Part shown: positions 28,139-48,298 of the stretch, piece after piece
How the letters are laid out: the number at the start of each line of letters is the position of its first letter
How positions within the stretch are numbered: position 1 is the stretch's first letter
DNA from: a bacterium
GTDB lineage: Bacteria; Fidelibacterota; Fidelibacteria; Fidelibacterales; Fidelibacteraceae
Length of the DNA stretch: 64,000 nt
Direction: 5' to 3'
Assembly: GCA_963676395.1 (NCBI GenBank)
Contig: OY781066.1
Span: 480,001-544,000, forward strand
Notes under the pieces: model-generated
What the model saw: only the letters and a program-made list of their open reading frames with translations
Told to the model about the DNA's origin: nothing
Database searches by the model: none
Program-made: the position numbers and the translations under genes

Positions 28139-28233
28139 GTCCAAACTCCAATTTGTATGGTAAAATATAATCATAAATTATCTTAAAACTATAATATTAA
28201 TTTCTATGTATAACATGCTTATATTCAATAGAC

Positions 28234-28699: not shown

Positions 28700-30496
28700 T
28701 TAATAGCCGGTTACTATCATAACCGCTTCTCCCGGTGGAACAATGATCTTCTTTTCACTTACCTTAATGGTCGCTTCTCCTTTTAAGGGTCCTTTGATCC
28801 AATCGAGTTTTGTGATCTTTTGATCTAATATTGTTGAAAAGTATGCTTCTTCGGTTTTTGCACCGGAGTTATATGCCATAATTAGCGCATGTCCTTCCGC
28901 CTCTCGAGTTAACAAATAAATGTCATTCTGAAGATCATGTTTCATTTTGCTCAGAAATACTTCCGGGTAATCTTTTCTTACTTTCGTAAAAGCTTTCATT
29001 TGTTCAAAAATTATATTTTCTTTTTCAGTGCGAGTATCCGCATTAAAAGCACTTCGCTTGGTATAAGTAAATCCCCCCGGAAACTCCTTGCGATTTTCCG
29101 GATCATGTCCTCCGGCCATACCAATTTCATTTCCGTAATAGAGCTGAGGTATACCCCTCATGGAAAAGATCATTGTGAAAGCATTCAAGTATTTCTGCAG
29201 ATCACCGTTAACCGCAGAATAGAAACGGCCCATATCATGATTATCCATAAAGGTTAACATTCTATTGGGATCACGATAAATAAAATCGTTGGCGATCTCA
29301 CGATAAAAACGATCAATAGCCTTATCCTCAACGATCAACTGATAAATTTCCGAAGAGAAGCCAAAATCCGCAATAGACGACAATCCATTATCGACGGCTT
29401 CGCCGAAATAAAAAGCAAGGCGTGTTCTATCAAAATCCATGATCTCACCAACAAGATATAGATCTGGATATTCACGTTTAAGAGCCTTACCCCAGCGGCT
29501 TAAACCGACGTGATTGGAATACGCATAAGTATCTTCTCGAATGCCATCCAATTTCATGGTTTCTATCCACCATATCGCATGGTAAATAAAATAATCTACA
29601 ACATCGGGATTCGCCATATTCATATCAGCAAGATAACCTGCAAACCAACCTTCGGTTGGGAATTCTCGTTTTGCCGTTGGACCATAGGTATCGGTAATGT
29701 CAAGAATTTGATAATTACAAGATTCATGATCATCCAACGACCCATTTAGCCAATCTTTTGAAGGGGGATTTACCGCCAAAGGATGCGTGGGTGAAATATG
29801 ATTAACAATATGATCTTGAATAATCTTGATGCCACGAGCGTGACAGGCACTAACCAAATTATGGTAATCATCAAAGGTACCCATAAATGGATCTATAACG
29901 TAGGAATTTGTCGGTGTATAACCATGATAGCAATTAATGTAATTATTTTCATAAATTGGTGTCATCCAAAGAGCCGTTATTCCTAATTCATCCAAATAAT
30001 CCAAATGATCAATCACTCCGCGAATATCACCACCTCGCCTCCCCCACTTATGATCGCGACGAACGGGATCTTTATGTCCCTTAATCGTATTATTTTGTTG
30101 ATTACCATCAGCAAAACGATCGGGAATAAGCAAATAGACCACATCTCTCGCATCAATGGTCTTAATGGAATATTTATCCCGTTGTTTAATCTCATAGGGA
30201 ATACTCAGCTCGGTGTCTTTGTTTTTAAAAACAATATCAAAATAACCGACTTTTTTAACCTTAAGAGATAATCCGTAATAATGTTTATCATCATACTTAA
30301 TTTTTTCAAGAAGTTTAACATTACGAGATTTGATTTTTACATCACAATCGGAAAAATCATCACCATATATAAGAAGTTTTAAGGTATCATGCTCCATATC
30401 TACCCACCAATTGGGTGGCTCTATACGGGAAACGTCTAAAGCAAAGGCGCCAGATATGGTAATAAACAGTAAAAATATTATTAATGATCTTTTCAT
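28700..30496 (-). CDS. GH13 cyclomaltodextrinase/neopullulanase (SusA-like), signal peptide
   Basis: IEPPNWW N-domain, YLLIPDRFADG, YHGY, DHIVNH, GIREDT, VGEI, FMDNHD. Confidence 0.9.
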   Translation of the reverse strand: MKRSLIIFLLFITISGAFALDVSRIEPPNWWVDMEHDTLKLLIYGDDFSDCDVKIKSRNVKLLEKIKYDDKHYYGLSLKVKKVGYFDIVFKNKDTELSIPYEIKQRDKYSIKTIDARDVVYLLIPDRFADGNQQNNTIKGHKDPVRRDHKWGRRGGDIRGVIDHLDYLDELGITALWMTPIYENNYINCYHGYTPTNSYVIDPFMGTFDDYHNLVSACHARGIKIIQDHIVNHISPTHPLAVNPPSKDWLNGSLDDHESCNYQILDITDTYGPTAKREFPTEGWFAGYLADMNMANPDVVDYFIYHAIWWIETMKLDGIREDTYAYSNHVGLSRWGKALKREYPDLYLVGEIMDFDRTRLAFYFGEAVDNGLSSIADFGFSSEIYQLIVEDKAIDRFYREIANDFIYRDPNRMLTFMDNHDMGRFYSAVNGDLQKYLNAFTMIFSMRGIPQLYYGNEIGMAGGHDPENRKEFPGGFTYTKRSAFNADTRTEKENIIFEQMKAFTKVRKDYPEVFLSKMKHDLQNDIYLLTREAEGHALIMAYNSGAKTEEAYFSTILDQKITKLDWIKGPLKGEATIKVSEKKIIVPPGEAVMIVTGY

Positions 30497-30609: not shown

Positions 30610-31977
30610 TTATTTCATCATTTGTTTTTTAAACAATAATAACCAGACCAGCACCCACAAAACAATAGCCGCAAGTGAAATAAAAAATACTACCCATGAG
30701 CCGGTCATCACGCATAAAGGCATGGCAATGGACGTCCATAAACCACCACCCATAAAGGGTTCATGTAAAAGCTGTTTATAACCGAAAGCAGCATAGGCCG
30801 GAGATTTTTGTTCGGGATCTACCACACGCAACAGCAATAATCCGGTGGCCGTAACACCCATAGATTGTCCCATTTCGGCAATCGCTCGTTCGAACCAGGC
30901 ATTCGGGAGCAATCTGCGAGCGAGAAACATCACACAGAACACATTCCATACCACACCGGCAAGAACAACGATCATAATAGGCAACATCTGTGAACCAACA
31001 ATCGATATGTTGATCATTGCGATGGCAGCAACGATAAGAAAATCTAAAGCCGCCCCGGATACGCGTTGCATCATTTCTCGATCCATAATGCTTTCCTTTT
31101 TAAGCACTCTGGTCATAAATAACTGCACAATCAAGCCACCGATCATGGATAGAGGAAACATAGGAAAAGAAGATAATATACCGTTTTCTTGCATTGCAGG
31201 TGAAAGTGACTCAATAGCTATCAAGCCCTGTTTAATTAAAAAAGCAATAAATATTGCGCCCCCCACCAAAGCGATGTGCAGTGATAAAGTGTCTATTGAT
31301 GCAGGCAATACCGTTTGTTTCCCGGCAGACGGTTGCTCCTGAGGATCGTAAATTCCCACGATATTGCTTTCGGAGATATCCGATATCTTTTGCATTTTGC
31401 TTACATGGCCACGTTTTACAGCCCAGTTAATCAACCAGGTTCCGGTAATGATTGCAAATACAATACCCATAGTTGCCGAGGTCAATGCAAAATCGGCACC
31501 GTCTTCCCAACCATACGAAGCAAATACTTCGGCAAGGCCGGCGGCAGTTCCATGACCACCCTCAAAACCAATGGGAATGATCACACCAAAATGTTGGGGT
31601 AATTTAAATAACGGGGCAATGATCAATAAAGACAATCCTATACCCACGACATACTGTCCCCAGGCAACAATTTGCCCATAAGCCAGTTGAGGTCCGCTTT
31701 GTCGCCAAACCTCACTGAGTTTAGGTATTTTAACGCCCATGAACAGACATGCAAAAATAATATTGATCAGAAAACTCGGAAGTTTATTCCATCCGGCCGT
31801 AACCGTATCGGGTAATCCATTGCCCAAAACTTGAATGATCAGCAAGCCAAGAAGTCCACCAATCACAGCCGCAGGTAAATACAATCGCTGAAGCAATTTT
31901 ATTTTCACCCGCAGGACTTTGCCTAATATCAACAGTAAACATAATGAGGCAAATGACAAAATGATCGTCATAATCAT
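30610..31977 (-). CDS. Sodium/glutamate symporter (GltS/ESS) family transporter
   Basis: PAAVIGG, GFEGGHGTAAG, GQSMGVTATGLLLLR. Confidence 0.88.
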   Translation of the reverse strand: MIMTIILSFASLCLLLILGKVLRVKIKLLQRLYLPAAVIGGLLGLLIIQVLGNGLPDTVTAGWNKLPSFLINIIFACLFMGVKIPKLSEVWRQSGPQLAYGQIVAWGQYVVGIGLSLLIIAPLFKLPQHFGVIIPIGFEGGHGTAAGLAEVFASYGWEDGADFALTSATMGIVFAIITGTWLINWAVKRGHVSKMQKISDISESNIVGIYDPQEQPSAGKQTVLPASIDTLSLHIALVGGAIFIAFLIKQGLIAIESLSPAMQENGILSSFPMFPLSMIGGLIVQLFMTRVLKKESIMDREMMQRVSGAALDFLIVAAIAMINISIVGSQMLPIMIVVLAGVVWNVFCVMFLARRLLPNAWFERAIAEMGQSMGVTATGLLLLRVVDPEQKSPAYAAFGYKQLLHEPFMGGGLWTSIAMPLCVMTGSWVVFFISLAAIVLWVLVWLLLFKKQMMK

Positions 31978-31979: not shown

Positions 31980-34817
31980 CTATTTAAGTAAAAGCATTTT
32001 ACGTGTTTGAATGTTTTTACCTGAAGTCAATTTATACATATAAATACCGGAGGCTAAACCATGGGCATCAAAGTACTGACTATATGTACCGGCTGATTGA
32101 TATTCGTTCACCAGTGTTTTAACATGACGACCGCCAAGATCATAAACGTCCAGTTTTACCTTCGCATCTCTGGTTAAAACATATTCAATGTTCGTAACAG
32201 GATTAAACGGGTTAGGATAGTTTTGCTTTAACTCAAAAGCCGCAGGAATAATATTTTTCAAACCAACTTCAAGGGTATCAAGAATGCTATCAGAATAAAT
32301 TCTATATTCGCCCGCTGCCAGTGATATACCTGCATTTACATCAGTGACGTTCATCTCATCGCGAGTAAAATACTCGTACCAGGTTCCTGTATTATGGAAA
32401 GCAGGTGTTGCTGTTTGTGTTATCACATCAAAATTACCCAGAACAACCACATTGATGCCACCTTCAGATAGTTTTAGACGTTTTGTAGAAATATTACTAC
32501 CTACCCATTGATCTACATTATTTGCCGATGAAAACACGGGATAGGTTTTTCTTAAAAAGTTCATGGCAGAATACAGTTCATAAACATCATGGCGATCCAT
32601 ATCTTCGAAATATTCCCATTTCACGGGTTTCTTCCCTGTACGACCATTATATTCGATAGAATATGAATAACCAAGTTCGCCAAATTGCCAAATCATTTTA
32701 GGTCCCGGATATGATAATAAGAATACGGCTGCAAGTTCATTTCGATCTAGCGCCGTCCCCTGAATCTTGATATTATAGCCTCCGTTACTGTTACCATATT
32801 CTTTATTTCGAAATGTAACACGTTCCTCATCATGACTTTCCATATAACCGACAAGATGACGCCAGCTCCAACTACGATTTGCATGATAAACTCCACCAAG
32901 ATCTGAAGATGCCAGATAGCCCATTGAAGCTTCGGAATAATTATGATTTGCATTTCCCCATAACATCATACCATAGTTTGCCAGCTCGTTTTCCTCACTG
33001 TTATCACCAAAATGTTCAAGAATGATATAAGCACTGGGATCTACATCCCAAATTTTATCAGCCATTCGCTTTAATATAGCAATACGACCTGCATCATAAT
33101 TCCCCCAATAGCCAACATTATCACCGGAATTCGTTTGAGTAAAACCTTTAGAAAGGTCAAATCTATATCCATCTACGTGATATTCTTCAATCCAGTATTT
33201 ATTTGCACGATCAAGATAATATTGGGTATGTTTGCTTTCATGATTCGCATCATTGAAAACATTAAAAGGATGTCGTGCACTGGTATTAAACCAAGGATTA
33301 TCCGAAGTCGGAGCACCATAAGTTCCTTCATTATAAAGACGTACAAAAGGGCTCTGACCAGTAGCGTGGTTATATACCACATCAAGGATGACCGCAATTC
33401 CTCTAGCATGACAGAGATTTACAAACTCTTTAAATTTTTGTGCGGTACCATAATACTTATCTAGGGCTTGATAAAAAGAAGGATTGTAACCCCAACTCTC
33501 ATTACCTTCAAACTCACAAACAGGCATCAATTCAATGGCGGTTACACCTAATTCTTCCAGATAATCTAATTTATCGATCAGCGATTGATATGAATGTTGA
33601 TATGTAAAATCACGAAGCAACAATTCATAGATTACTAAATTATCCTTATGAGGTTTAACATAGGCTCCATCAGTCCAGGCAAACACATCGGGAGTAGGAT
33701 CCACAACAGCTACGGGGAAATCGGTTTTACCATCAGGATATAACTTGAGATCAGGATAAACTGCCGGCGAAATATATTCATCATTCCATGGATCCAAGAT
33801 TAATGAAGAATAGGGATCGGCAATGCGTATCTCGCCATCTACCAGATATTGAAAGCCCTGTTCTTCGGCATAAGAATTAGGAATACTTAACCAAAATACC
33901 GTTGAATCCGGAGCCGGTTCATATTTTTTCAATTGATAAGCCGGATCAATCATCCAATCATTAAAATCACCTATCAGATACACAAAATCTTTTCCGGGAG
34001 CAAAAAGAGCAAAATCTAAAGTCGAAGCATTAACCGCCACCCCCATTTCGGTACCCGAAGGCATAGTAGCCATATTGTGAGTATATTCTACAATACACAC
34101 TCGGTCAGTGGTATCAACTTCACTTCCTTTATTTGCAATGGCGTAAATATAGTTTTTACCTTCAGTAAAATGATGTGCCTGAATGGTATATTCCAGTTCA
34201 TCTACACTTGTAGCCGTGGTTAATTGAGTATTATTTAAGTACAAAGCAATATTATCGGCGGTTTCACTTGTTTCCACTCGAACATTCTGAGGTGCAGAAT
34301 CATCGGGAGACCTGAAAATAGGAGAACGCTCAGCAACACCAAAATCAATGGAAGCAGATGGTTCAAAAATAGCAACGGAAAAAACATCTTCGTATAATGT
34401 TAAATAGATATCTGAATCTCCAGCATCTTTGCCAACTTTAGAACCCGTAGCATCTCTAAAAACAAAAGCCAGCTTTTCTATTTGCGTACTAGTTGGACAA
34501 GAATAAAAATCATATACAGAGCCTATAACCAGTTTATATAAATTATCCGAAACCTTGGTCATGGTATTTTGGGTAGTATTTACCCCCCAATTCCATGGAA
34601 CAAATTTCCAATCGCTACCGTCACCACTCTGATCTGTGATCAAACCACAATGAGCATAAATAGATCCGGAATAATCTTTAAGTGCCTGATTCCCCATGGC
34701 AGCGTCATAAAAAATAACAATAGAATCGTTCTGAGTTGCAAATGCGGGTTCCGAGTAGATCACTTGTGCAAATGAAAATGCACTTGTTACACATAACAAT
34801 AATGCTAGCTTTTTCAT
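31980..34817 (-). CDS. Secreted GH13 alpha-amylase with T9SS type A C-terminal tail
   Basis: Signal peptide; YELLLRDF, SWGYNP, DVVYNH, DGYRFDL, ILEH, ESHDE; QNYPNPFNP...SGIYMY...KMLLLK. Confidence 0.9.
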   Translation of the reverse strand: MKKLALLLCVTSAFSFAQVIYSEPAFATQNDSIVIFYDAAMGNQALKDYSGSIYAHCGLITDQSGDGSDWKFVPWNWGVNTTQNTMTKVSDNLYKLVIGSVYDFYSCPTSTQIEKLAFVFRDATGSKVGKDAGDSDIYLTLYEDVFSVAIFEPSASIDFGVAERSPIFRSPDDSAPQNVRVETSETADNIALYLNNTQLTTATSVDELEYTIQAHHFTEGKNYIYAIANKGSEVDTTDRVCIVEYTHNMATMPSGTEMGVAVNASTLDFALFAPGKDFVYLIGDFNDWMIDPAYQLKKYEPAPDSTVFWLSIPNSYAEEQGFQYLVDGEIRIADPYSSLILDPWNDEYISPAVYPDLKLYPDGKTDFPVAVVDPTPDVFAWTDGAYVKPHKDNLVIYELLLRDFTYQHSYQSLIDKLDYLEELGVTAIELMPVCEFEGNESWGYNPSFYQALDKYYGTAQKFKEFVNLCHARGIAVILDVVYNHATGQSPFVRLYNEGTYGAPTSDNPWFNTSARHPFNVFNDANHESKHTQYYLDRANKYWIEEYHVDGYRFDLSKGFTQTNSGDNVGYWGNYDAGRIAILKRMADKIWDVDPSAYIILEHFGDNSEENELANYGMMLWGNANHNYSEASMGYLASSDLGGVYHANRSWSWRHLVGYMESHDEERVTFRNKEYGNSNGGYNIKIQGTALDRNELAAVFLLSYPGPKMIWQFGELGYSYSIEYNGRTGKKPVKWEYFEDMDRHDVYELYSAMNFLRKTYPVFSSANNVDQWVGSNISTKRLKLSEGGINVVVLGNFDVITQTATPAFHNTGTWYEYFTRDEMNVTDVNAGISLAAGEYRIYSDSILDTLEVGLKNIIPAAFELKQNYPNPFNPVTNIEYVLTRDAKVKLDVYDLGGRHVKTLVNEYQSAGTYSQYFDAHGLASGIYMYKLTSGKNIQTRKMLLLK

Positions 34818-36036: not shown

Positions 36037-36193
36037 GCACAACATCAAATAATGTAATTAAGTTCTATATAAACTCGGATTAAAACCTGAGGCTTTTGTG
36101 CATTTGCAATATTATATTTTTGTATTATATTTAAATAACTATTGTAGTCTGAACAGCTTTTTACTTTAGCTCTAATATTTATGAGGTATACAT

Positions 36194-36391: not shown

Positions 36392-36415
36392 CATAAATCA
36401 ATTTATGAGTCTAAT

Positions 36416-37225
36416 ATGAAAAAATCTATTTCAATACTTCTTGTCTTTATTGTGTTAGTAGCAAGTACTCTATTTGCTCAAGAAAAACCCAAAGTTCCTA
36501 AATGGTATCCATCCACCAAAACACATTCAAAACGTGAAATGAAAAGATATGAGTCAAAATACAATCGTTTTATCAATACCTACCATTTAGAAAATGTAAA
36601 AGGAGGCGTTGATAGCATCAATGCGCATCTGAAGTATATACGATTCAACGATAAATTTAAAATTTGCAATTTCACTAACACCACCGATTCAATTGAAGTT
36701 TTTAAAAATAAAATATTTTCTTTTTATCGCTATTGGTGGCGAATATTTTCAAATGAACGTTTTGAAATAGATTCCTCAAGAATATTTATTGATGATGGTG
36801 GCTGCCTACAAGGGAGATTTACTATCAAGCATCCTTACGATCCTTCATTAAATATTCTTAAGCGTGAATTAGGTTCTTTAAGTGCAAGTGTTGATAGTGA
36901 AGGACATTTATTCTATATGCATTCATCACTTGTCCCTCACCTTCGCATACCGAATCAGCCCCTGATCACTAAAAGTGAAGCATTCCGTATTATCGAAGGA
37001 TATACATTCACCATTAATCAACCTATACATTTATATCATAAAACCTTTACCTTGACACGAGAAAAACTCAATGATCCAGAGCTAACCGTTTATACACAAA
37101 AAATAAATAAAAAGAGTTTAAAATATCGCCTCGTTTGGAGATTTCAAACTCGCGAGGTTATTGTATATATTGACGCTATGACAGGGGATATCATTGAACA
37201 CAAAATTACGTTGCTATTTATGTAA
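36416..37225 (+). CDS. Exported hypothetical protein with PepSY-like C-terminus
   Basis: Signal peptide (LFA-Q); ITKSEAFRI...YRLVWRF...VYIDAMTGDII. Confidence 0.65.
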   Translation: MKKSISILLVFIVLVASTLFAQEKPKVPKWYPSTKTHSKREMKRYESKYNRFINTYHLENVKGGVDSINAHLKYIRFNDKFKICNFTNTTDSIEVFKNKIFSFYRYWWRIFSNERFEIDSSRIFIDDGGCLQGRFTIKHPYDPSLNILKRELGSLSASVDSEGHLFYMHSSLVPHLRIPNQPLITKSEAFRIIEGYTFTINQPIHLYHKTFTLTREKLNDPELTVYTQKINKKSLKYRLVWRFQTREVIVYIDAMTGDIIEHKITLLFM

Positions 37226-37248
37226 TAAATATTGCACAAAATTAACAG

Positions 37249-37272
37249 AGCTCCTAGAATAGGAGCTTTTTT
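37249..37272 (+). terminator. Intrinsic terminator
   Basis: AGCTCCTA-GAA-TAGGAGCT-TTTTT. Confidence 0.8.
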
Positions 37273-37430
37273 ATATCAATAATATTAAGGACATAATAAC
37301 ATTCTTCGTAAATACTATATTGCTACTCCGCTTAAATTTACGTTCAAGCAACATACACAAAGGGCTCGATAACATCGAGCCCCATGCATATATCTTTTCC
37401 GATTTCCGATTATCGGTCTCGGTTACAGAT

Positions 37431-39413
37431 TTATTTCATCAGAACCATTTTGTTAACAATAGTAGCATTGTCAGCAGTCAACTGATAGAAATATACGCCT
37501 GATGCAAGATTTGCACCGTCAAAAATGACATCATAAGCGCCTGCATTAACATAACCGTTTACCAAGGTTTTAACCTTGCGACCGGCCATATCAAATACGG
37601 TTAAATTCACATCTGAACCCGAAGGAACAGAGAATGAAATTGTTGTAACAGGGTTGAAAGGGTTGGGATAATTCTGTGCTAGAGTAAATTCAGCAGGGAT
37701 ATCTTCAACAGCAACACCCGGTGTAGGTGTCCACTCACTGTAGAAAGTAGGATTGATACTACCAAAAGCAATGTACAAATAACTTTCAGCTTGTGAATCA
37801 TCAATGTTTACAATATGGTTATTACCATAACCGCCTTCACCACCTTCATTATCACCACCGTTGATACCGAATTTACATTCTTGAGCAACAGTATGACCTG
37901 AATCGGGAGAAAGCATATATGTCAATGTATAAATTGAATCACCGGCAGTGGCATCGCCATGTGTACCATCATCATACATTACGCGGTTTGTATCTGACAT
38001 TAATGAAGAGCCCCAGCCTGCCCATGTACCTTCAGCATAATTTGAAAAAGGTCCATTCATAGCAACACCGCTGATTTGAGAAACACTAGAAATATCCTGT
38101 GTTCCCTGAATATCATTCAACACTTTGCCAGCAGCTACTGTTGCATAAGCAGGACGAAGATCACATTCAACGTGAACAGTAACATTCTGTGAAAGAAGAC
38201 TTCTATTACGGAAGAAAGGCATGCGGCGTTCTTCACCACCATCAGTTTCAACATCGGCGATTTCTTCATCACCATCAGCGATAATCACGCGACGACGTTC
38301 AGCAGCTGAAGGTGTAGAACCATCATAGTTAAAGTTATAATAAACTTCACGTTCTTCAGCACCCTCTTTAATCATGTAATACTGATAATATAGATATTCA
38401 CCAAATACAACTGAAACATCAGAGGCTTGTGCCTGATACATTTGCGTACCACCCACGTGAGTCATCTGTAGTGTATGAACTTCATTTGAACTCAATTCAT
38501 AACCAAAACGTACTTCAAGAGTATCACCAATTTCAAAACCGTTATTTTCAACGGCATCAGCCATATTTACACCAAAAAGGATGTCGGCTGTATCAGCACC
38601 ACCAAAATCACCACCGGGAACATCATTCCACCATACCCAAGCGATCGTTGTATCTTTTGCAGGCAAACTAATCCGACGGTTTTCGGATGCTCCGTAAGAG
38701 CCATTCATATTTTCACTGTCATCCCATGTATCACCATTTACAAAGCGATAATTTTCGGACATAGGAAGAAATGAGGGATCAAGTTTCAGATGATAATTCC
38801 AAAAGTCAGATGAACCTTCCTGTGCCATAGCATATGCATCGGGAGTCCACATATTGGTACCTGAACCATTCAAAGGAAAACCACCAACAATGTTCATTCC
38901 TCTATCAGCACTATAATTTTCATAAGCACTCATATTGATACGGAAGAAAATATCAATTGAATCGGAAGGTGTGTAGGGAGGATTATAATCGTTATTTACA
39001 TAAGCAACATCAAGAACTGTATCACCTGATGCAGGCATAGTGAACATACGGTTTCCACCGGGAATGGTTACATTTTCCCAGTTGTAACCTTCTTCAACAG
39101 TTGAATCATAATAGCAAATCTTATATGCCATACGCCAACCGGCCATTGAATCCGGATATGCCACTGTTAATTCCCAGTAGTCTCCACCGACGTTAACGGC
39201 ATTCTGCGAATCATCTCCCCATGTCAGGAAATTGTTCTGCCATTTATCAACACCTTCGGGGCCAACTTCTGCACCACGGATTTGAACAGCGTAAGTTGAG
39301 TCAGCGGCACCCAACCCTGTAAGAGTAGACATATTTGCTACGTAAGTTACATTGATATCAGCCAATGCAAACGTAGCAAAGATGACCATCAAGATTACAA
39401 GAAGTTTTTTCAT
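37431..39413 (-). CDS. Secreted T9SS-tailed protein with four CBM20-like beta-sandwich repeats
   Basis: Repeats open VTYVANMS / IFFRINMS / ILFGVNMA / VHVECDLR, Trp-rich; MYDDGTHGDATAGDSIYT motif; QNYPNPFNP...KMVLMK tail. Confidence 0.75.
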   Translation of the reverse strand: MKKLLVILMVIFATFALADINVTYVANMSTLTGLGAADSTYAVQIRGAEVGPEGVDKWQNNFLTWGDDSQNAVNVGGDYWELTVAYPDSMAGWRMAYKICYYDSTVEEGYNWENVTIPGGNRMFTMPASGDTVLDVAYVNNDYNPPYTPSDSIDIFFRINMSAYENYSADRGMNIVGGFPLNGSGTNMWTPDAYAMAQEGSSDFWNYHLKLDPSFLPMSENYRFVNGDTWDDSENMNGSYGASENRRISLPAKDTTIAWVWWNDVPGGDFGGADTADILFGVNMADAVENNGFEIGDTLEVRFGYELSSNEVHTLQMTHVGGTQMYQAQASDVSVVFGEYLYYQYYMIKEGAEEREVYYNFNYDGSTPSAAERRRVIIADGDEEIADVETDGGEERRMPFFRNRSLLSQNVTVHVECDLRPAYATVAAGKVLNDIQGTQDISSVSQISGVAMNGPFSNYAEGTWAGWGSSLMSDTNRVMYDDGTHGDATAGDSIYTLTYMLSPDSGHTVAQECKFGINGGDNEGGEGGYGNNHIVNIDDSQAESYLYIAFGSINPTFYSEWTPTPGVAVEDIPAEFTLAQNYPNPFNPVTTISFSVPSGSDVNLTVFDMAGRKVKTLVNGYVNAGAYDVIFDGANLASGVYFYQLTADNATIVNKMVLMK

Positions 39414-39508
39414 TAGATTACTCCTTTTTTTGTTTCTTGTTTATCTTCTTTGTTAACTTTTTCTAATTAATGTGAAACGCAGTAAATCGCATTTCTACAT
39501 TTTTCACC

Positions 39509-40540
39509 TTAAAATGTTAAAGCAAATGAGGTTGTATTCAACATACCTAACCTGCCATAATTTTGGAATGAATAGTCAAAAATAATATTCATTCCGGATA
39601 TATTTAAATTCAAACCAAGTCCCAGTGTTAAACCACTTTCGCTTTCAGATTTGAACAATGATTGATAGCCGGCGCGAACCGAAATGATATTTGCGATCAT
39701 CCAGTCGGCACCTAGATTTAATGTCTGTGCATCATTCGTGGGACGAACAACATCTGCAGCTAAAACAAGACGATTGTTTCGAGTATTAAGTACCGGCATT
39801 GAAGCACCGATAATATAGGTTAAAGGAATTGCCCACGTATCAGTTTTTAAATACGAAACAATATTCTCATTATTACCATCTGACGCTTCATCAAGATCTA
39901 CCTGAACTAAAAGATCTCGTCCACGCATTTCCATGGAGCCCCCAAAATTACGGATGCTGGCACCGATCTGAAGTCCGTTAAATTGTGTAATAAACAGTAA
40001 ACCCAAGTCAAGCGCAACGGTTGAAGCACTTTCATTATATATCTGCTGATTAATGTACTTTACACTCGCTCCGATAGAGAACCTGTCTGTCATATTTCTT
40101 GCATAACTCAAAGAAATAGACATATCGCTGGCCTGCCAGAATTCACCGGTACCATCAGGCTCTTCAACCGTAGTAACGGGTTCCCAGTCACCATAATTCA
40201 AACTATTCAATGAAACACCAAAAGCATCAGATGATGTTAACATATACTGCGCTCCAAACCATGTGTGCTGCGAATCCACAAAGTAATTTGTAATGGATGT
40301 GTAAACATCGGATTTACCGACCCTTGACATCGCACCCGGATTCCAGAACAATGCGGTAGGATCATCCGAAATAGCCGTATAAGCGCCTCCCATAGAAATA
40401 GCTTTACCACCCACCGGAACATTCAAAAAGTTCGCTGCGACTGTTCCAACTTTATCCTGAGCAAAAGCGGCAGTAACAAGTCCCATACAGATCAATAATA
40501 TTGAAATAGCTTTTTTCATTTTTGTATTCCTGTTCATCAT
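39509..40540 (-). CDS. PorV/PorQ-family outer-membrane beta-barrel
   Basis: FLNVPVGGKAISMGGAYTAISDDPTALFWNPGAM; C-terminal F; overlaps upstream stop. Confidence 0.88.
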   Translation of the reverse strand: MMNRNTKMKKAISILLICMGLVTAAFAQDKVGTVAANFLNVPVGGKAISMGGAYTAISDDPTALFWNPGAMSRVGKSDVYTSITNYFVDSQHTWFGAQYMLTSSDAFGVSLNSLNYGDWEPVTTVEEPDGTGEFWQASDMSISLSYARNMTDRFSIGASVKYINQQIYNESASTVALDLGLLFITQFNGLQIGASIRNFGGSMEMRGRDLLVQVDLDEASDGNNENIVSYLKTDTWAIPLTYIIGASMPVLNTRNNRLVLAADVVRPTNDAQTLNLGADWMIANIISVRAGYQSLFKSESESGLTLGLGLNLNISGMNIIFDYSFQNYGRLGMLNTTSFALTF

Positions 40541-43500
40541 TTGATCACCGCAACCTTTCCGGATTTTTTACCCACTGAGGATTCAATCACGTAAAAGTAA
40601 ACACCAAAAGCAATATCCAGGTTCTCGCTTGTCTTTAGATCCCAAGCAAGCGTACCATTATGAATATCACCATCATGATTCAATGTTCTAACCAATGAAC
40701 CTGCCGATGTAAAGAGATATACTTTCGCATCTTCAGGTAATCTACGGAATTCGATTCTTCGCTCACCTCGTCCCGATGTTACTGCGGGAGGAAGTGGCGC
40801 TTCCATGTTATTAGCTACAATATATGGATTTGGAACAACCTGAACATTTTCCAATGAAGTTATCGCATCATCAGTGTTCACTTCGGGTACTTCGGTTGTA
40901 AATTCAAATACGTCACCGTTTCTGAAGGGTTTCTTTGTAATAATACTTAAGACATCGCCATTACCAAATTTATTACGGGTACCTTGTTCTCTAAATGTTA
41001 TAACCCAAGAATAGATCGCATTTAAGGAATCGGTATCTCCCGGCAAATAAAAGAAGGTCGAGAGCATTGCGCCATTGGACAATTCATAAATATCTGATGA
41101 GTTTTTATGACCGCCTGAAAATATAAATGGCACAACACAAGAATCCGTAACATTGTAGAGATAGAAGTTGGTTTCTACCGCTGAAGGTCTTAAAAATGAC
41201 GGTAATGTTGAATAAACATTATCAATTAAAAACTGAGGTGTAGAATAACCAATAGATGTGGAATCAACAAATCTGATCTCAAAATCAGCCGGATATGGTA
41301 TACCTGTCATAATGGTATCACCGAATGATGATGCAAATGCTTTCATTGAGAAATCCATTTGGCGACCATTTGTATTATTCCAAAATGTGTTATCTTCATC
41401 CTTTTCAATGATCCAATCATTAGCAAAGACCAACTGCAAACCATCAAAAATATCTGAATCCTTTGTTTCTCCTGAGTATGGCGAGCCTAAAATATTTGGA
41501 CTTTCATAGACGGGATAATACTGATAATTAAGGATATAATTCCCTTTTTCATAAGCACTACCGTCTATCAATTTAATTCTTCCTCTTAAGGTATCGAATT
41601 CAAATTCATCAACATCAAGATAATCATTGGGATAATCGACTTCCGCGATCAAAATACTATTTTTAATCAAATGTTCTTTCGCCAGATAAACATATTCAGT
41701 ATCCACTTCAACTATTTCTCTATGTCCCGTAAGGTCCATGATGGTATATAAAGTTGTAATGGGTGTATATTCATCCGGATCTAGAACATCAACTAAAAAA
41801 TCTTCATCATTATCAAGACTATCAGATTTAGTATCAATAAATGTTACACGGTATGTATGATCAGACAGTTCTGCTTCATCAAGGATCTCATAAGCGATCT
41901 CACCACTGGCGGGACCCTCATCGTGGAAAAGTTTTGTATCTTGATTTAAAGCATCATAGCCTGCGACAGCCGGTTGAGGTCTTACAACAGCAGTATTAAC
42001 ATCGGTAATAATAGAACCATCTGGCTGTACCGAGATAAACTTGGTGTTTTCTGAAGGGTAGATATCATTTGCCTCATCACCGCGATCATAGGCGACAACA
42101 GCATAATAATACTGTTTTCCATTAACAACATCATTATCAACATAAGTATGCTGTAATCCTGTATTATTACCCAGATTAACCGTATAACCATCGGCTTCTT
42201 GGAACAATTCGGAACTCGGTTCAAACATTCCGCTGATATGATTATCAAGATCGTATTGTTTAAAGGCTTTATAACCCGTGACGACACCATTGGCATTTGT
42301 TACACTGTATACTTCATTAAAATCAGAGTCAGTGGCTTTGTAAATTTTATAACCTTCAAAATCTTGTTCTTTGGTTACCGGATCAATTGATTTCTCCGCA
42401 TCTCGGTTCCAGTATAATGTTACTTTTCCATCACCCGGAACAGCGGTAAGAACAGGTTTATCGGGTGGTGAGGGGAAACGATAGTCAGAATCATATATCT
42501 TTTGTACCGTTGTACGATTTTTATATAAATCATCCAGATCATGACCATAAACAAGGGCAAGTGAGAAACGCTGGGTTTCACCCGCTCTTAAAGGGAAATA
42601 ACCTGAACCGTAAATAAAGTCACCATCTTCACCGGCAACAGGTTCACCGTTTTGGATATTGGTAGGTAGGTCAAAGTAACCCGGCTTCAACCAATCCCAA
42701 AGTTTATCATCATCATCCATAGGATATTCGTTGGAAGGTGTAAAATAATTGAACGAACTCAAACCGATCTGGTCAGATTCATCAACATCGGTTGCATCAA
42801 AATTCGGTTCACCGGCAGTAGGAAGTCCATCACCTTCACCAAAGTCGTTGGTATTGTCTTTACCATCTGCACCAACATCATCAAATTCCATATTCCAGTC
42901 ACCGTCGTTGTCAATGCCATCGGCTCGTTTTTCATCAATCATAGGATCATTAACACCCTGACCGGTAATATAATCCACATAACATACGGGATTTAAAATA
43001 TCATAGAGCTTCACATTGATCATTTCTTCACGATCGCCATCGCCATCAACATCATATTTATCGGCTTCTTGTTTTAAACGAACTTGACGATAATGGTAGA
43101 TATAGTTTTCATCAATCAAACCATCAAGGTCATTATCAATACCATCATAAGCGTTCTGGTTCATATTATAAAATTCATCGATAGGATTACCTTCGATCAA
43201 TTTTGTAACACCGGCTTCGATCGTTATTGACGCACCGCGTGTATTAAATGTTTGGGGACTTTCTGTGATCGTTACAACCGTACGACTGTAATCTTCGTTG
43301 ATCACAACCACCTGATCGCCTATTTCATAGACAATCGTATCAAAATCGTCAGCAACAAATTTCGGAGCTGAAAAAGCTAAGGCCGGATTTGTTTCAATCT
43401 CATTGTCTCCATCATTATCAATACCATCATATTGGTTGCCGGGAGATTCCAAGAAAGCATATCCGACTAAACCGACAGGTCCTTGCCATTTAGGGTTACG

Positions 43501-44397
43501 AGCACAGGAATTATCGAAATCGCCGGTATAAGTAATATCGTTTTGAACATCAAAGAATGACCAGTCATCATCATACTCACCGTGTGAATCGTCCGTACCG
43601 GTTACACCGATATATGTACCACAAAGCATACCAAAGGCAACCTTAGAATAATCGGTTGTTGATGTGTTTGTAACTTCATATAACCAGAAGATAACATCAG
43701 AAGCCAGGAACTGTTGCCACTGCATACCACGAACACGCATTTCCAAACCCAGACCGTTCCTTGTAAGATCGGTTGAATCGGGTTTAAAATAATAACCGGG
43801 GAATCCCAGCCAACGACCGGAGGTATTTGAGCGATGATTGTATTCTTCATCATTATTATCATCCATCACATAAAATGATTCCTGATCGGCAGAAAAAACA
43901 TCTTTACCAAAATAACCATTCCATGCACCTCTCCAACCGGGATCTTCGGTATCATGAGCTTTGTCCGGCCAACTTAAAGGCCAGGAATTCGGATTGGTGC
44001 TCATTGCCACCTGAGTCTGGTTGGCATTAATATATCCACCTACAGGCTCAAATGTCCATAGCTGACCATCATTTGATTCTTCGGCTTGTGTACGGGGACG
44101 ATCAATCGGACAAACAACAACTGAATTGAAGGTTAAATTTGAATCAAGGGTTTCATCGTAATATGTAACTTCGGCGCCAACCATGGGCGAAATATCTCCA
44201 ATGTAACCGTTGGTATCAAAAAGCCATGCTCCGCGGGGGCCTTTTGAACTTGGTTGTCCAACTGTCCCCCAGTTTCCAAAAACAGTACGAACCAAGTTTG
44301 CGTTATGAACGGCAGAGCGGCGATATTCCGGTCCACTTTGTGCAACAGCTATAGCTACGATGAGTAGCAATATACATAATCTTTTTATTGTTTTCAT
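40537..44397 (-). CDS. 1286-aa exported protein with Asp-rich Ca-binding repeats, FN3-like domain and variant T9SS-type tail
   Basis: Signal peptide; DGIDNDGD-type repeats; PGDGKVTLYW...DFEGYKIYK...YYYAVVAYD; VVPNPY...WDLKT...GVYFYVI...KVAVIK. Confidence 0.75.
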   Translation of the reverse strand: MKTIKRLCILLLIVAIAVAQSGPEYRRSAVHNANLVRTVFGNWGTVGQPSSKGPRGAWLFDTNGYIGDISPMVGAEVTYYDETLDSNLTFNSVVVCPIDRPRTQAEESNDGQLWTFEPVGGYINANQTQVAMSTNPNSWPLSWPDKAHDTEDPGWRGAWNGYFGKDVFSADQESFYVMDDNNDEEYNHRSNTSGRWLGFPGYYFKPDSTDLTRNGLGLEMRVRGMQWQQFLASDVIFWLYEVTNTSTTDYSKVAFGMLCGTYIGVTGTDDSHGEYDDDWSFFDVQNDITYTGDFDNSCARNPKWQGPVGLVGYAFLESPGNQYDGIDNDGDNEIETNPALAFSAPKFVADDFDTIVYEIGDQVVVINEDYSRTVVTITESPQTFNTRGASITIEAGVTKLIEGNPIDEFYNMNQNAYDGIDNDLDGLIDENYIYHYRQVRLKQEADKYDVDGDGDREEMINVKLYDILNPVCYVDYITGQGVNDPMIDEKRADGIDNDGDWNMEFDDVGADGKDNTNDFGEGDGLPTAGEPNFDATDVDESDQIGLSSFNYFTPSNEYPMDDDDKLWDWLKPGYFDLPTNIQNGEPVAGEDGDFIYGSGYFPLRAGETQRFSLALVYGHDLDDLYKNRTTVQKIYDSDYRFPSPPDKPVLTAVPGDGKVTLYWNRDAEKSIDPVTKEQDFEGYKIYKATDSDFNEVYSVTNANGVVTGYKAFKQYDLDNHISGMFEPSSELFQEADGYTVNLGNNTGLQHTYVDNDVVNGKQYYYAVVAYDRGDEANDIYPSENTKFISVQPDGSIITDVNTAVVRPQPAVAGYDALNQDTKLFHDEGPASGEIAYEILDEAELSDHTYRVTFIDTKSDSLDNDEDFLVDVLDPDEYTPITTLYTIMDLTGHREIVEVDTEYVYLAKEHLIKNSILIAEVDYPNDYLDVDEFEFDTLRGRIKLIDGSAYEKGNYILNYQYYPVYESPNILGSPYSGETKDSDIFDGLQLVFANDWIIEKDEDNTFWNNTNGRQMDFSMKAFASSFGDTIMTGIPYPADFEIRFVDSTSIGYSTPQFLIDNVYSTLPSFLRPSAVETNFYLYNVTDSCVVPFIFSGGHKNSSDIYELSNGAMLSTFFYLPGDTDSLNAIYSWVITFREQGTRNKFGNGDVLSIITKKPFRNGDVFEFTTEVPEVNTDDAITSLENVQVVPNPYIVANNMEAPLPPAVTSGRGERRIEFRRLPEDAKVYLFTSAGSLVRTLNHDGDIHNGTLAWDLKTSENLDIAFGVYFYVIESSVGKKSGKVAVIK

Positions 44398-47177
44398 AAG
44401 TTTATCCTCAATCCGATCTCTATACGACGAGGTTCAGAATAGTAATATGGTGAGTTAAACAATTCCGCAATACTGATAACCGGTGTCGCAACATTCAAAG
44501 CTTCAATTCGAGCTTGATCTCCGGTAAATCCGGCGCGACCCGTATCATCATATACACCCACTTCATTCAATCTATCAAGAACATTGGTTATTCTCACAAA
44601 AACTTCAGGTGTCAAACCAAATAGATCAAAGCGATAGAAGCCGCGTAAGTTCACGTTGAATGTTGAAGGTTTACTCTCTGAATTTTCCAGTAATGAAGTA
44701 ATATCGTCTGAAGCTCTTGGCGTATATGGCAAGCCACTTCCGTAAGATGCTACAGCATTTATACCCCAAAAAGAAGTATTAAAACCACCTACAACATTCA
44801 CGGTATGTCGCTGATCCCAAGAAAGGGGAAGCAACTGAACTTCAGGATCAGATCCGCCTGACACGGCATTCATATAAGCATAAGGATCCGATGCCGTCCC
44901 TTCTGCAATTTGAAAAGTATAATCCGCACCGGCATAAAAGCCACTGGGATCACGCTGATTCAATGAGAAGGTTACACCTTTGATCACTGCAAAATCAGAG
45001 TTTACGACTTTAGAATAATATTTTGACCCACCAAAGACTTCGATCACATCGGCACGTGTACCGGTCAGATCACGAACATCTTTAAGATATACTGTCAAGT
45101 CTGCAGACAAATTAGAATTCAACTGCTGTTGTAAACCAATTTCACCAACAATGGTTTTTTCCGGTGAAAGATCGGCATTTCCGATCGTACCTTGGTGACC
45201 GGTACCACTTCCTAATTGAAATGAAGGGTTCATATATAAATAGGTATAGTTAGGTGTCTGAAAAAATTGTCCGTATGAGAAATGAAATACACCTTGTTCA
45301 GAAATCGGAAAAGAAAATCCAATTCGAGGTGAAACAGCCAATTTTGGTGTTGCATCCACATACCAATATTCGGACCTATCTTCAATACTTTTACTAGCCT
45401 CACCGGCATCCTGTACACCATTGCCATTAATATCATTAAAACGATTATCAGGTTTAATAGGATTGTAAATATCAGGATCAGAAGGATCTGCCAGGGTAAC
45501 ATAATTAGGGTTAAAGTAGTCAAAACGTACACCAACATTAACAATGAAATCCTTTAGTTCAATTTTATCTTGAATAAAAGCAGAAAATTCAACGGGACTA
45601 ACTTCAAATGAACTTGAATAAAGCGTTGTATCAGCTAATCTGGTAGGTGTAATATATGGATCATCAGAATTAAATGATTCTTCATCTGCAGCAGGTCTGT
45701 ATTCCCAACTATTATATGCTAACATATTATATTTGAACTCGGCACCCAATTTCAATTGATGTGCTTTATCCAATTGAGATGTAAAAGTAAATTTACCAAG
45801 ATGATAACCACTGTTTCGTTCATACCAATTGTTCTGAGTACCTCCGATATGCAACTGATAAGGAAAAGTATTTTGCATTTCAGGATGAACCAGTAAATTG
45901 GAATCAGCTTCTGTCAATTCAAAATGATCATAGTAATTCTTGTATAATCTATTACCGTAAGTATAGGCCAAATCAAAGAAAGTTGTTTGAGATAGCTGAT
46001 GCTGATACTTTAAAATATGTGTTTGACCTATTTGATCCTGCGTACTTAAACCATCGGGATTATACATCCAACCGCGATCAGCACTTTGGAAACGGCGATC
46101 ATCATAGATCATATTATAAGAAACACGAGCTTTATCATTGATGCGATAGATTAATTGTCCCTGTAAATAGTATTTACGATTCCAACCCATATCTACCCAT
46201 TTACCATCTCCAAGCATCGTGGTTGAATCGGTAAGTTGAATGTCATTAAATCCGACTTCTTCTCCATAAGCAATAGGGGTGTATCTATTTTGACCTTTAT
46301 GATAACCATCATAATAGATATTTCTGGCATTTAAATAATAATAGAGTTTTCCGGGAATAATGGGACCATTTAAACCAAGTTCAATATTTCTGATACCGAA
46401 AAGTTCTATTCTATTAACTCTGGGGAAAATCTCCTCATGAGATGAAATATGGTCACCAAAATACGTTTCCACATGACCACCGAAATCATCGGAACCTTGT
46501 TTTGTGGTGATATTAACAATACCGGACATCGCCTGTCCATATTCGGCATTAAAAGCCCCCGAAATAACCTGAAGCTCTTGCACCATGGAAGTGTTCACAT
46601 CAACAGTAGATGAACGATCGTATGAATCGGTCATGGGAACACCATCTATCATATACATAACTTCACCACGACGACCACCTCGCAGGGAGCCATCAACCAT
46701 CCCAGCTTGCATAGCAAGAACATCACCAACTTCGGTAACGGGTAATGATTCCATTTCTTTTGCACCAACAATAGCGGTTGTAGATGTCAAATCCTTTTGG
46801 ATCATGGGTCTTTCAGCAACAACAGTTACTTCCCCACTCTGTAGGGCCTCAACTGTCATTTCCGCATCCAGAGGTGTTGTAAAATCAACTTGAACCTCTA
46901 CATCAGTTACTTTTAGCTGTCCGTATCCGATCATCATGAAACGCAATGTGTAAGTTCCGGGGGGAACATTGATAATATAGTAGTTCCCATCAAGATCAGA
47001 AGCAGCACCTAAAATAGTTCCTTCCACGAGAATATTACACCCCGGGAGGGGATCTCCGGTCGCCTTATCGATCACCTGTCCGGATATTTTTCCGGCAGTA
47101 CCAGCAAAAAGTGCCGAAACACTAAATGCAATAATCAACAAGAACATAACCAAACGCCTAATAGTAGCTTGTTTCAT
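44394..47177 (-). CDS. TonB-dependent receptor (non-SusC type, N-terminal carboxypeptidase-regulatory-like domain)
   Basis: GKISGQVID...GYYIINVPPG-like N-domain, RGGR, SGAFNAEYGQAMSGIVNITTK, SPRIGFSFPI, PRRIEIGLRINL. Confidence 0.92.
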   Translation of the reverse strand: MKQATIRRLVMFLLIIAFSVSALFAGTAGKISGQVIDKATGDPLPGCNILVEGTILGAASDLDGNYYIINVPPGTYTLRFMMIGYGQLKVTDVEVQVDFTTPLDAEMTVEALQSGEVTVVAERPMIQKDLTSTTAIVGAKEMESLPVTEVGDVLAMQAGMVDGSLRGGRRGEVMYMIDGVPMTDSYDRSSTVDVNTSMVQELQVISGAFNAEYGQAMSGIVNITTKQGSDDFGGHVETYFGDHISSHEEIFPRVNRIELFGIRNIELGLNGPIIPGKLYYYLNARNIYYDGYHKGQNRYTPIAYGEEVGFNDIQLTDSTTMLGDGKWVDMGWNRKYYLQGQLIYRINDKARVSYNMIYDDRRFQSADRGWMYNPDGLSTQDQIGQTHILKYQHQLSQTTFFDLAYTYGNRLYKNYYDHFELTEADSNLLVHPEMQNTFPYQLHIGGTQNNWYERNSGYHLGKFTFTSQLDKAHQLKLGAEFKYNMLAYNSWEYRPAADEESFNSDDPYITPTRLADTTLYSSSFEVSPVEFSAFIQDKIELKDFIVNVGVRFDYFNPNYVTLADPSDPDIYNPIKPDNRFNDINGNGVQDAGEASKSIEDRSEYWYVDATPKLAVSPRIGFSFPISEQGVFHFSYGQFFQTPNYTYLYMNPSFQLGSGTGHQGTIGNADLSPEKTIVGEIGLQQQLNSNLSADLTVYLKDVRDLTGTRADVIEVFGGSKYYSKVVNSDFAVIKGVTFSLNQRDPSGFYAGADYTFQIAEGTASDPYAYMNAVSGGSDPEVQLLPLSWDQRHTVNVVGGFNTSFWGINAVASYGSGLPYTPRASDDITSLLENSESKPSTFNVNLRGFYRFDLFGLTPEVFVRITNVLDRLNEVGVYDDTGRAGFTGDQARIEALNVATPVISIAELFNSPYYYSEPRRIEIGLRINL

Positions 47178-47290
47178 ACTATTTCCTATGATATTTCGAT
47201 TGCATGCTTAGTTTGAGGGAAATTAAAATAGTTTCTTTAAAATACAAACATTTTTTTATACATTCTTGTTATTAAATCAGGGGATGAAAA

Positions 47291-48298
47291 ATGAAAAAGA
47301 ATATACCTTTAAGCACGATAAGACAATTTAAAACGAACGAAGAAATACGTGCCTATCTACTATTAAAGGAAAAACATCTGCGATTAACACGTGATGGGAA
47401 GCCCTATCTTGATGTAATTCTTGCAGATAGATCAGGTGCTATCATAGGTAAAATCTGGGAGCACGCCGGAGAGATCGAACCGATGATCGAGACAGGCGCT
47501 CCTGTTGGTGTCCGTGCTATCGTCGAAGATTATCGAGGTAATCGTCAACTCAATATTAAACGTATTGTACCCGTTAATGAAGAAGATTTTTCGGCTAAAG
47601 GCTTTTCCTGGGAGCTCATTTTACCTCAATCGGAGAAAAATTCTGAAAAATTGTGGAAATTTGTCGAAAAAAACATCAATAAAGTAACTGATCCCTACCT
47701 AAACAAGTTACTTCAGTTATTAATTGTTGATAATCGTAGCAAAATACTAAAACATCCTGCCTCTTTACGCTTACATCATGCCACAATGGGGGGTTTTCTG
47801 GAGCATACGGTATATATGCTTAATCTTGGACTGCATGCCGCAAAACAATACAAGTTAAATATTGACCTTATCATCACTGGGATCCTACTTCATGATATAG
47901 GAAAACTCGATGAACTTAGCGGCTATCCAAACAATATGTATACGGATGAAGGAAATTTTTTTGGACATGTTGTCATGGGATATAATATGGTAGATAGAAC
48001 AATCGAAAAGATCAAAGATTTCCCGGAAGATCTTGCGATGAAAATCAAACATATCCTCTTATCTCATCAAGGTGCTTATGAAAATCAGTCTCCCAAAAAG
48101 CCGGCGTTCCCCGAAGCACTGCTGATACATTATCTTGATGAGTTAGATGCTAGAATGGATATGATGAAAACCGCGATCAGTCAAGAACTGGATGACGGCG
48201 AATGGACCTCAATGAAAAATTATTTTAGAATACCTCTTTATAAATCGAGCAAGGAAGAAAATGAACTCAACCAAGGAAACACTAAAGAAAAATCGTAG
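47291..48298 (+). CDS. YhaM-like 3'-5' exoribonuclease (OB fold + HD domain)
   Basis: GKPYLDVILADRSGAIIGKIW, HHATMGGFLEH, LHDIGK, ILSHQG, YLDELDA. Confidence 0.88.
   Translation: MKKNIPLSTIRQFKTNEEIRAYLLLKEKHLRLTRDGKPYLDVILADRSGAIIGKIWEHAGEIEPMIETGAPVGVRAIVEDYRGNRQLNIKRIVPVNEEDFSAKGFSWELILPQSEKNSEKLWKFVEKNINKVTDPYLNKLLQLLIVDNRSKILKHPASLRLHHATMGGFLEHTVYMLNLGLHAAKQYKLNIDLIITGILLHDIGKLDELSGYPNNMYTDEGNFFGHVVMGYNMVDRTIEKIKDFPEDLAMKIKHILLSHQGAYENQSPKKPAFPEALLIHYLDELDARMDMMKTAISQELDDGEWTSMKNYFRIPLYKSSKEENELNQGNTKEKS

Follow-up and report, generated by a model that had tools for sequence, protein, structure and literature searches.

The cassette described here lies in a window of 64,000 nucleotides, the whole stretch of DNA that was analyzed (contig OY781066.1, positions 480,001 to 544,000, of assembly GCA_963676395.1), from a bacterium of the family Fidelibacteraceae with a genome of 2.34 Mb that forms one contig and is 95% complete. 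The cassette consists of genes for a TonB-dependent receptor (TBDR), a large exported protein called here BIG, an outer-membrane barrel of the PorV/PorQ family, and a cargo protein of the T9SS, the type IX secretion system. An earlier note on this DNA had proposed that the first three form an uptake module without SusD, in which the barrel holds the large protein at the surface as a lid for the receptor. All four open reading frames (ORFs) were found where the note had placed them, on the minus strand, and so were the 4-nt overlaps between the TBDR and BIG genes (44394-44397) and between the BIG and barrel genes (40537-40540). As a unit, the four genes are conserved and coupled in translation. 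The sequence from 35039 to 48000 was matched without differences by one contig from a public run, which may come from the source sample and is therefore not an independent confirmation. The main features, in window positions, are the following.

44394..47177, minus strand: TBDR, 927 amino acids, non-SusC, with a carboxypeptidase-regulatory-like N-terminal extension, a plug and a barrel
40537..44397, minus strand: BIG, 1286 amino acids, Sec-exported, no named family, from the ORF and profile searches
42478..44340, minus strand: BIG residues 20-640, galactose-mutarotase-like beta-supersandwich with an acidic insertion and a linker helix that closes it
42778..43446, minus strand: BIG residues 318-540, an insertion rich in Asp that carries DGIDND / Dx[DN]xDG loops
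41968..42477, minus strand: BIG residues 641-810, FN3-type domain that contains a long insertion, from Foldseek matches to fibronectin type III
40540..40884, minus strand: BIG C-terminal tail (VVPNPY...GKVAVIK), PorZ/PorU-like T9SS domain
39509..40540, minus strand: PorV/PorQ-family outer-membrane barrel, 343 amino acids, proposed dedicated shuttle/anchor of BIG
37431..39413, minus strand: T9SS type-A cargo, 660 amino acids, four beta-sandwich domains, CBM20-like, no catalytic domain seen
38979..39362, minus strand: cargo domain 1, which has the CBM20 fold and in which W65, W80, K98, W112 and R122 are conserved

The survey of gene neighborhoods that the earlier note had called for showed that the order of the trio (TBDR, BIG, barrel) is conserved over several phyla. 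A scan of species representatives gave at least 600 stretches, of which 597 were confirmed and the best 80 kept; these are the closest relatives, so that the counts describe the subfamily of the window BIG and are not independent, and the testable loci are those with enough room, the others being ended by contig ends. BIG had the TBDR gene directly upstream in all testable loci (73 of 73) and the barrel gene directly downstream in 65 of 65, and a homologue of the cargo followed the barrel in 53 of 56. The record titles of the best 80 carry Marinimicrobia, KSB1, Ignavibacteria, Calditrichota and Bacteroidota labels, with one Prosthecochloris, and about 44-50% identity is kept across phyla. BIG matches at E<=1e-10 were present in 200 of 201 genomes of the phylum, a figure that is inflated by matches to the tail only, and the count at E<=1e-100 was used instead, which gave a strong BIG homologue in 163 of the 201. 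Across the loci, the TBDR and the barrel had the same nearest paralogous cassette of the host genome in 91 of 91 scorable cases, some of them duplicates, which is what descent as a unit predicts but does not show binding. Three genomes of the phylum, of about 1 Mb each, were seen to keep a divergent trio, made of a TBDR, a tail protein of 1080-1221 amino acids and a barrel.

A homologous trio is also located on plasmid pRMAR01 of Rhodothermus marinus (6305-18784; RMAR_RS14120/14115/14110), so that the system is directly testable in a cultured organism. All three genes of this plasmid trio are nearest to the cassette of the host genome at 2128-2136 kb, the subfamily of which may import peptidoglycan fragments. 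Genes for an FG-GAP cargo, for an Amidase_2 protein and for a serine hydrolase adjoin the plasmid trio, which lies between CRISPR-Cas genes.

The TBDR of the window carries a CarboxypepD_reg N-terminal extension and a Plug domain according to Pfam, and from residue 582 it has a DINGNG calcium-type loop, resembling the loops of BIG. Its assignment as a non-SusC receptor was confirmed by the score against TIGR04056 (75.6 bits versus the cut-off of 368), and for the SusC signature TIGR04057 nothing over the cut-off was found in the whole genome, while the control was positive. SusD was, as the note had said, not found: PF07980, PF14322 and PF12771 had 0 matches genome-wide, and all three controls were positive in B. 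thetaiotaomicron. Membership of the cassette in the SusC/SusD core of polysaccharide utilization loci (PULs) was rejected, because the TBDR was below the SusC cut-offs and no SusD-family lipoprotein was adjacent. A lipobox was found in none of the four cassette N-termini with a regular-expression search. The genome also holds TonB-domain proteins. In the phylum, SusD (PF07980) was matched in 46 of the 201 genomes, and in 0 of the 22 other genomes of the host family. The trio and SusD coexist in many genomes.

BIG was found to be, as previously described, an exported protein of 1286 amino acids with DGIDND-type motifs, which are located at residues 324, 418 and 493, with related loops at 449 and 507, and Asp makes up 10.9% of the protein. 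No Pfam or NCBIfam family was matched by BIG at E<=0.01, its closest named homologues belong to Marinimicrobia/Fidelibacterota, and the wider family forms 393 clusters at 50% identity (E<=1e-30). An AlphaFold2 model of residues 20-1180, based on 62 sequences, had a predicted local distance difference test score (pLDDT) of 89.4 and a predicted template modeling score (pTM) of 0.80; it was almost wholly beta, and its secondary structure was used to set the domain limits. In comparisons using VIA-align, residues 20-640 matched dextran dextrinase 9ju0 with a Z score of 19.4 (root-mean-square deviation (rmsd) 3.2, 256 aligned) and bacterial glucoamylase 1lf6 with a Z score of 19.1 (rmsd 2.9, 234 aligned). 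The other fold matches were GH94, GH65 and GH116 enzymes, the supersandwich being the fold of the N-terminal domains of GH15, GH94, GH65 and GH116 proteins. These matches bear on BIG up to about residue 790, with the residues beyond barely covered. Foldseek returned fibronectin-type matches only, a sequence search of the PDB returned tail and FN3 matches only, and in the ESM Atlas there was no usable named cluster for residues 20-320, while the whole protein led to clusters of hypothetical proteins only. In enzymes of the GH15/GH65/GH94 type the catalytic (alpha/alpha)6 barrel comes after the linker helix. The identity of BIG as a GH15/65/94 glycosidase or phosphorylase was rejected, because in the model of residues 20-1180 the linker helix is followed by an FN3-type domain and only short helices, with no catalytic barrel, and no GH family was matched.

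The conservation of BIG was compared in 85 diverse cluster representatives. The best-conserved block of the family is the FN3-type domain (residues 641-810; mean identity 0.42, occupancy 0.95), which together with the supersandwich stands out from the rest, while residues 861-980 are present in 41% of the representatives and may be subfamily-specific. Eight charged residues (D171, E173, D180, R223, D234, D277, D278 and D542) are kept in 87-100% of the representatives, and no His is conserved at >=80%. Possible roles of the conserved Trp and acidic residues are in a binding surface, in Ca2+ sites or in an active site of an unknown kind. The DGIDND / Dx[DN]xDG loops, which we take to be a Ca2+-binding motif, suggest that the Asp-rich insertion probably binds Ca2+.

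The tail of BIG resembles those of PorZ and PorU. The best PDB matches of the BIG family profile were PorU 6za2 (E 0.014) and PorZ 5m11 (E 0.025), and all 61 tails scanned matched NF052228 PorZ at E<=0.1, that of the window BIG with 21.7 bits, while whole-length BIG gave no match to this profile. Assignment of BIG as a type A cargo (TIGR04183, 13.6 bits versus the cut-off of 23) or as a type B cargo (PF13585 CHU_C, 16.2 bits versus 27) was rejected. The placement of the barrel in the PorV/PorQ family was supported by NF033709 (179 bits versus 90), while it was below the PorV, PorQ and PorV2 equivalog cut-offs (PorQ, 122 bits versus 220). The PorP/SprF profile TIGR03519 did not match the barrel and had no match over its cut-off in the genome, the control genomes being silent for this profile as well. 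The expectation that a non-type-A tail would be paired with an adjacent barrel was correct in that such tails adjoin PorV-like barrels, but the type B precedent did not apply, as the BIG tail has more in common with the uncleaved tails of PorZ and PorU, and the barrel does not belong to PorP/SprF.

The linkage between tails and barrels was also analyzed over the genome, by scoring every C-terminus against profiles for both types of tail and excluding 10 ambiguous tails, 4 of which lie beside a barrel. The data showed that 7 of 8 atypical-tail proteins were encoded at most 4 genes from one of ten barrels, compared with 8 of 69 type-A proteins (Fisher p 2e-5), the remaining 61 of 69 type-A proteins being more than 4 genes from any barrel. 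Five loci of the genome join a TBDR, one or more atypical-tail proteins and a PorV-like barrel. In a quick tree the window barrel fell into one group (SH-aLRT 91) with 18 barrels that belong to orthologous cassettes in other lineages, apart from nine paralogues of the same genome. The view of the barrel as a dedicated partner is consistent with this locus specificity, but the pairing is not strictly one barrel per protein. The locus at genome positions 607500-627000, a more complex version of the cassette, contains two TBDRs, three atypical-tail proteins (749, 740 and 784 amino acids), one PorV-like barrel and two probable lipoproteins; the protein at 620723 has a paralogue at 665655-668009.

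According to the available text of published work, the PorZ tail is uncleaved, is of neither the A nor the B type and is held by PorQ (PMC10947112), type B cargos depend on a cognate barrel whose gene lies directly downstream (PMC12618676) and which serves as their anchor (PMC9143113), and PorV proper is a shuttle (PMC12618676). By analogy with these systems, and with the gene linkage described above, the tail of BIG would pair with the adjacent barrel, which probably holds BIG on the cell surface. The genome contains SprA and PorU, while GldM/PorM had no match in it, with the control silent as well, and its T9SS may lack the usual motor. Further T9SS-related proteins observed are a second PorU-like protein of 1605 amino acids beside its own barrel (genome 1318727-1324587), a TPR protein with a match to T9SS PorW/SprE below the cut-off (window 51461-53545, plus strand; 59 bits versus 250), and a glycosyl-hydrolase-like protein, GHL10, whose T9SS tail is of type A (window 60917-64000, minus strand).

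The cargo had been described as a Trp-rich, four-repeat protein with a canonical T9SS tail. Its tail is of type A (TIGR04183, 43.2 bits versus 23; PF18962, 40.6 versus 27), it has a signal peptide, and its model consists of four beta-sandwiches (pLDDT 87.7). Only domains 1 and 2 (98.5% in hhalign) and domains 2 and 3 (88%) are clearly homologous, however, with domain 4 at <=12.5% against the others, so that four domains are present but not four clearly related repeats, and Trp amounts to 2.1%, versus 1.14% over the ORFs of the genome. Domain 1 superposed on the CBM20 of 2vn7 with a Z score of 11.7 (rmsd 1.9, 96 aligned, 23% identity), and its ten best structure matches were all starch- or glycogen-binding modules or proteins bearing them. 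Residues W65, W80, K98, W112 and R122, which are presumably the CBM20 binding-site residues, are kept in 76-78 of 78 alignment rows. Pfam CBM20 (PF00686) was found in 20 of 120 homologues among the matches listed, and over the cut-off in 13 of 38 rescanned ones, a set partly chosen for that label. SusE and SusF are the non-catalytic multi-CBM starch-binding proteins of the Sus system, and we infer a SusE/SusF-like role for the cargo.

Beyond the cargo gene, two GH13 genes follow at 2.6 kb and 6.9 kb, and in one relative the secreted GH13 gene comes directly after the cargo gene. The neighboring features are listed below.

47178..47290, no strand assigned: intergenic region 5′ of the TBDR gene, kept in 4 close relatives with a mean column identity of 82%
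37361..37383, minus strand: terminator-like hairpin of 10 pairs directly 3′ of the cargo gene, a pattern match only
31980..34817, minus strand: T9SS-secreted GH13 with CBM48 (amylase/pullulanase-like), in the same cluster and syntenic in same-genus genomes
30610..31977, minus strand: GltS-family sodium symporter, syntenic with the amylases, with a putative role in sugar import
28700..30496, minus strand: exported GH13 with a cyclomaltodextrinase N-terminal domain (Pfam/NCBIfam), syntenic in the genus

Among the 46 long loci (>=15 kb), an alpha-glucan enzyme (GH13, GH77, GH57, GH97 or a glucan phosphorylase) was found within 10 kb in 25, and regulators or transport components included LacI in 25, MalK in 7 and TrmB in 5. 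The co-occurrence with carbohydrate-active enzymes (CAZymes) that had been suggested for survey was observed, for alpha-glucan enzymes, in just over half of the long loci. Because the cassette combines a CBM20-type cargo with neighboring alpha-glucan enzymes, alpha-glucan is the likely substrate of this BIG subfamily. The locus is a PUL in the broad sense, that is, a TBDR clustered with CAZymes and a glycan-binding protein for one substrate. In five relative loci of the starch type a single barrel gene is preceded by a tandem pair of large atypical-tail genes; a gene for an SSF symporter comes next in 5 of 5, with TrmB in four and GH13 nearby in four.

The region at 47178..47290 is the probable promoter region of the cassette, judging from its conservation, while a promoter scan was at chance (50 sites versus 51.8 expected). 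At the other end, a DUF1295 gene and a 269-amino-acid exported ORF with a weak PepSY match (window 35185-37225, plus strand) separate the cargo gene from the amylase gene; the ORF had no match in syntenic relatives, and one relative is without both it and the DUF1295 gene. A short repeated element lies near window 34969-35072. A multi-pass membrane protein of 1125 amino acids (window 24797-28174, minus strand), which had no Pfam/NCBIfam match, is syntenic after the second GH13 gene in two relatives, and its EETLFR stretch is, in our assumption, comparable to CPBP/CAAX-protease motifs.

With gene linkage, folds and tail class as observed above, we favor, with modest confidence, the reading that the locus is the outer-membrane core of a starch/glycogen (alpha-glucan) utilization system built without SusD. 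It is very probable that the cargo would bind alpha-glucan via its CBM20-like domains and, together with the secreted GH13, capture and cut the polymer outside the cell, with the TBDR importing the maltodextrins. It is also probable, though a little less so, that BIG would exit through the T9SS translocon (SprA), that its PorZ-like tail would be taken up uncleaved by the adjacent barrel, and that BIG would in consequence stay on the surface, as PorZ does on PorQ. The further step, which we consider an even chance, is that BIG would be the non-catalytic surface partner of the TBDR, its supersandwich, stiffened by Ca2+ loops, capturing the oligosaccharide and passing it to the pore, which is the job of SusD; contact between BIG and the TBDR is suggested only by the position of their genes. 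The same three-gene core would be reused, as divergent paralogues, for other nutrients. The most far-reaching form of this reading is that TBDR, BIG and barrel would be one outer-membrane machine, in which the transporter is covered by a lid that the T9SS secretes, that derives from the accessory beta-supersandwich of glycosidases and that is fastened through its tail to a second barrel. Lidded importers would then have a second class, built independently, which would be the main platform of nutrient import in Marinimicrobia, KSB1, Calditrichota and Ignavibacteria and would be kept even in 1-Mb marine genomes, with the window copy as its starch version. We put this form forward tentatively, as a proposal that, taken whole, is somewhat more apt to fail than to hold.

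Several observations weigh against the alpha-glucan importer and its lid. The identity of BIG to its fold matches is only 5-12%, and a common fold shows no function. The PorZ/PorU tail matches are weak, both in the PDB and in NCBIfam (the E values and bit score given above), and in 7 of 98 loci BIG and the barrel point to different nearest paralogues. One barrel serves two or three atypical-tail proteins in some loci, while the 784-amino-acid atypical-tail protein at genome 665655-668009 has no barrel within 26 genes and no adjacent TBDR. The window cargo has no Pfam CBM20 (PF00686) match, and 21 of the 46 long loci are without an alpha-glucan enzyme within 10 kb. Paralogous trios are found beside non-glycan genes (an amidase and a serine hydrolase on the R. 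marinus plasmid, a subtilase in the host genome), so that the core fold of BIG is not starch-specific. Finally, 39 of the 46 SusD-positive genomes of the phylum also have a strong BIG homologue, and the trio therefore does not simply replace SusD.

The uneven ratio of barrels to tail proteins is also what could be expected if BIG were held by the barrel but did not cap the TBDR. BIG would then be an independent glycan-binding or scaffold protein of the surface, SusE/F- or adhesin-like, that concentrates substrate or docks type-A enzymes, next to a TBDR as lid-less as the glycan TBDRs of proteobacteria. Surface proteins typically have such an FN3/Ig-like architecture of several domains with Ca-type loops, and no result obtained here shows contact between BIG and the TBDR. 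We consider this explanation unlikely, if the strongest of the competing ones, as BIG is directly behind the TBDR in every testable locus, which is stricter than the linkage of the cargo or of any enzyme, and the trio is kept at considerable identity across phyla and in the three genomes of about 1 Mb. The fold matches, on the other hand, could point to a surface enzyme of unknown class (lyase, hydrolase or epimerase), with an active site in the beta-supersandwich, that readies the substrate for the TBDR. The top matches are all carbohydrate-active enzymes, mutarotases among them, and the eight charged residues named above are highly conserved. However, it is the N-terminal domains of those enzymes that give the best matches, with no catalytic helical barrel next in the model, mutarotases use a His and BIG has none that passes the conservation threshold, and the same core occurs beside starch, peptidoglycan and protease genes, which makes an enzyme improbable.

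Least probable of all, in our estimate, is that the barrel does no more than shuttle transiently, or works for all secreted proteins of the locus, and that BIG has a non-nutritional role in TBDR assembly, signaling or cell contact. The near-universal BIG-like matches in the phylum, some of them tail-only, would fit such an explanation, as would the shuttle function of PorV proper in the accessible text of PMC12618676. Type-A cargos, however, are mostly distant from barrels, and the subfamily travels with the CBM20-type cargo in nearly all testable loci, both of which speak against it.

The absence of a functional account of the trio, of which the earlier note had been unsure, was supported by a literature search, in which no published description of it was found, subscription papers and bioRxiv supplements being outside its coverage. 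A 2026 review of glycoside transporters (PMC13543919) contains 0 occurrences of PorV, T9SS, Marinimicrob-, Ignavibacter- or Rhodotherm-. The numbers for the sampled phylum (strong BIG homologues in 163 of 201 genomes versus SusD in 46) give the scale of the question. PUL prediction leans on SusC/SusD pairs, so that trio-based loci would be missed in abundant uncultured phyla. If the proposed reading is true, the trio would be a marker for nutrient-uptake loci in those phyla, the T9SS would be used to build an accessory subunit of an importer, and a class of tail/barrel pairs would be added to types A and B. If the lid model also holds, several abundant phyla would have a second class of lidded importer.

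Among known systems, the xylan locus of Rhodothermus marinus contains a row of genes, Rmar_1070-1073, which Table 1 of Ara et al. 2020 (PMC6987092) gives in the order TBDR, hypothetical protein bearing a Por tail, hypothetical exported protein, and again hypothetical protein bearing a Por tail. This order looks like the cassette quartet, as compared by table description only. The accessible text of that paper describes no system and leaves the proteins hypothetical, its three supplements contain no Rmar_1070-1072, and the same locus has a SusC/SusD pair. The type B cargos with PorP/SprF (SprB-SprF, PG1035-PorP) are similar to the cassette in having the barrel gene directly downstream of the cargo gene and, in the available descriptions, in anchoring of the cargo at the surface by the barrel. 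The cassette differs from them in the sub-threshold type B score of the BIG tail (16.2 bits versus 27) and in its barrel, which belongs to the PorV/PorQ family in a genome with no PorP/SprF over the cut-off. A closer likeness is that to PorZ-PorQ and PorU-PorV of the Porphyromonas gingivalis attachment complex, as the cassette has a PorZ/PorU-like tail and an adjacent PorV/PorQ-family barrel. BIG, however, lacks the body of PorZ or PorU, and PorU itself is encoded separately in the genome. In addition, the barrel does not reach the PorQ/PorV equivalog cut-offs, and the pair comes together with a TBDR and occurs in five loci. By this analogy, the cassette would borrow the logic of PorZ-PorQ without being PorZ or PorQ.

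The Bacteroidota PULs use SusC/SusD, and both the Sus system and the SusCD-type PULs share with the cassette a TBDR that has an N-terminal extension and next to which a surface partner is strictly placed. Likewise present in one locus are GH13 enzymes and a starch-binding protein that has several CBMs and is not catalytic. In the accessible part of a recent preprint, SusD is described as a lipoprotein lid on SusC (bioRxiv 10.64898/2026.09.16.752182). The partner in the cassette is instead a 1286-amino-acid all-beta protein of the T9SS type, which is not a lipoprotein and has no SusD match, a PorV-family barrel belongs to the unit, and the binding protein and the amylase bear T9SS tails instead of lipid anchors. 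While the two defining features of SusCD membership are absent from it, the cassette would work like the core of a Sus-type PUL.

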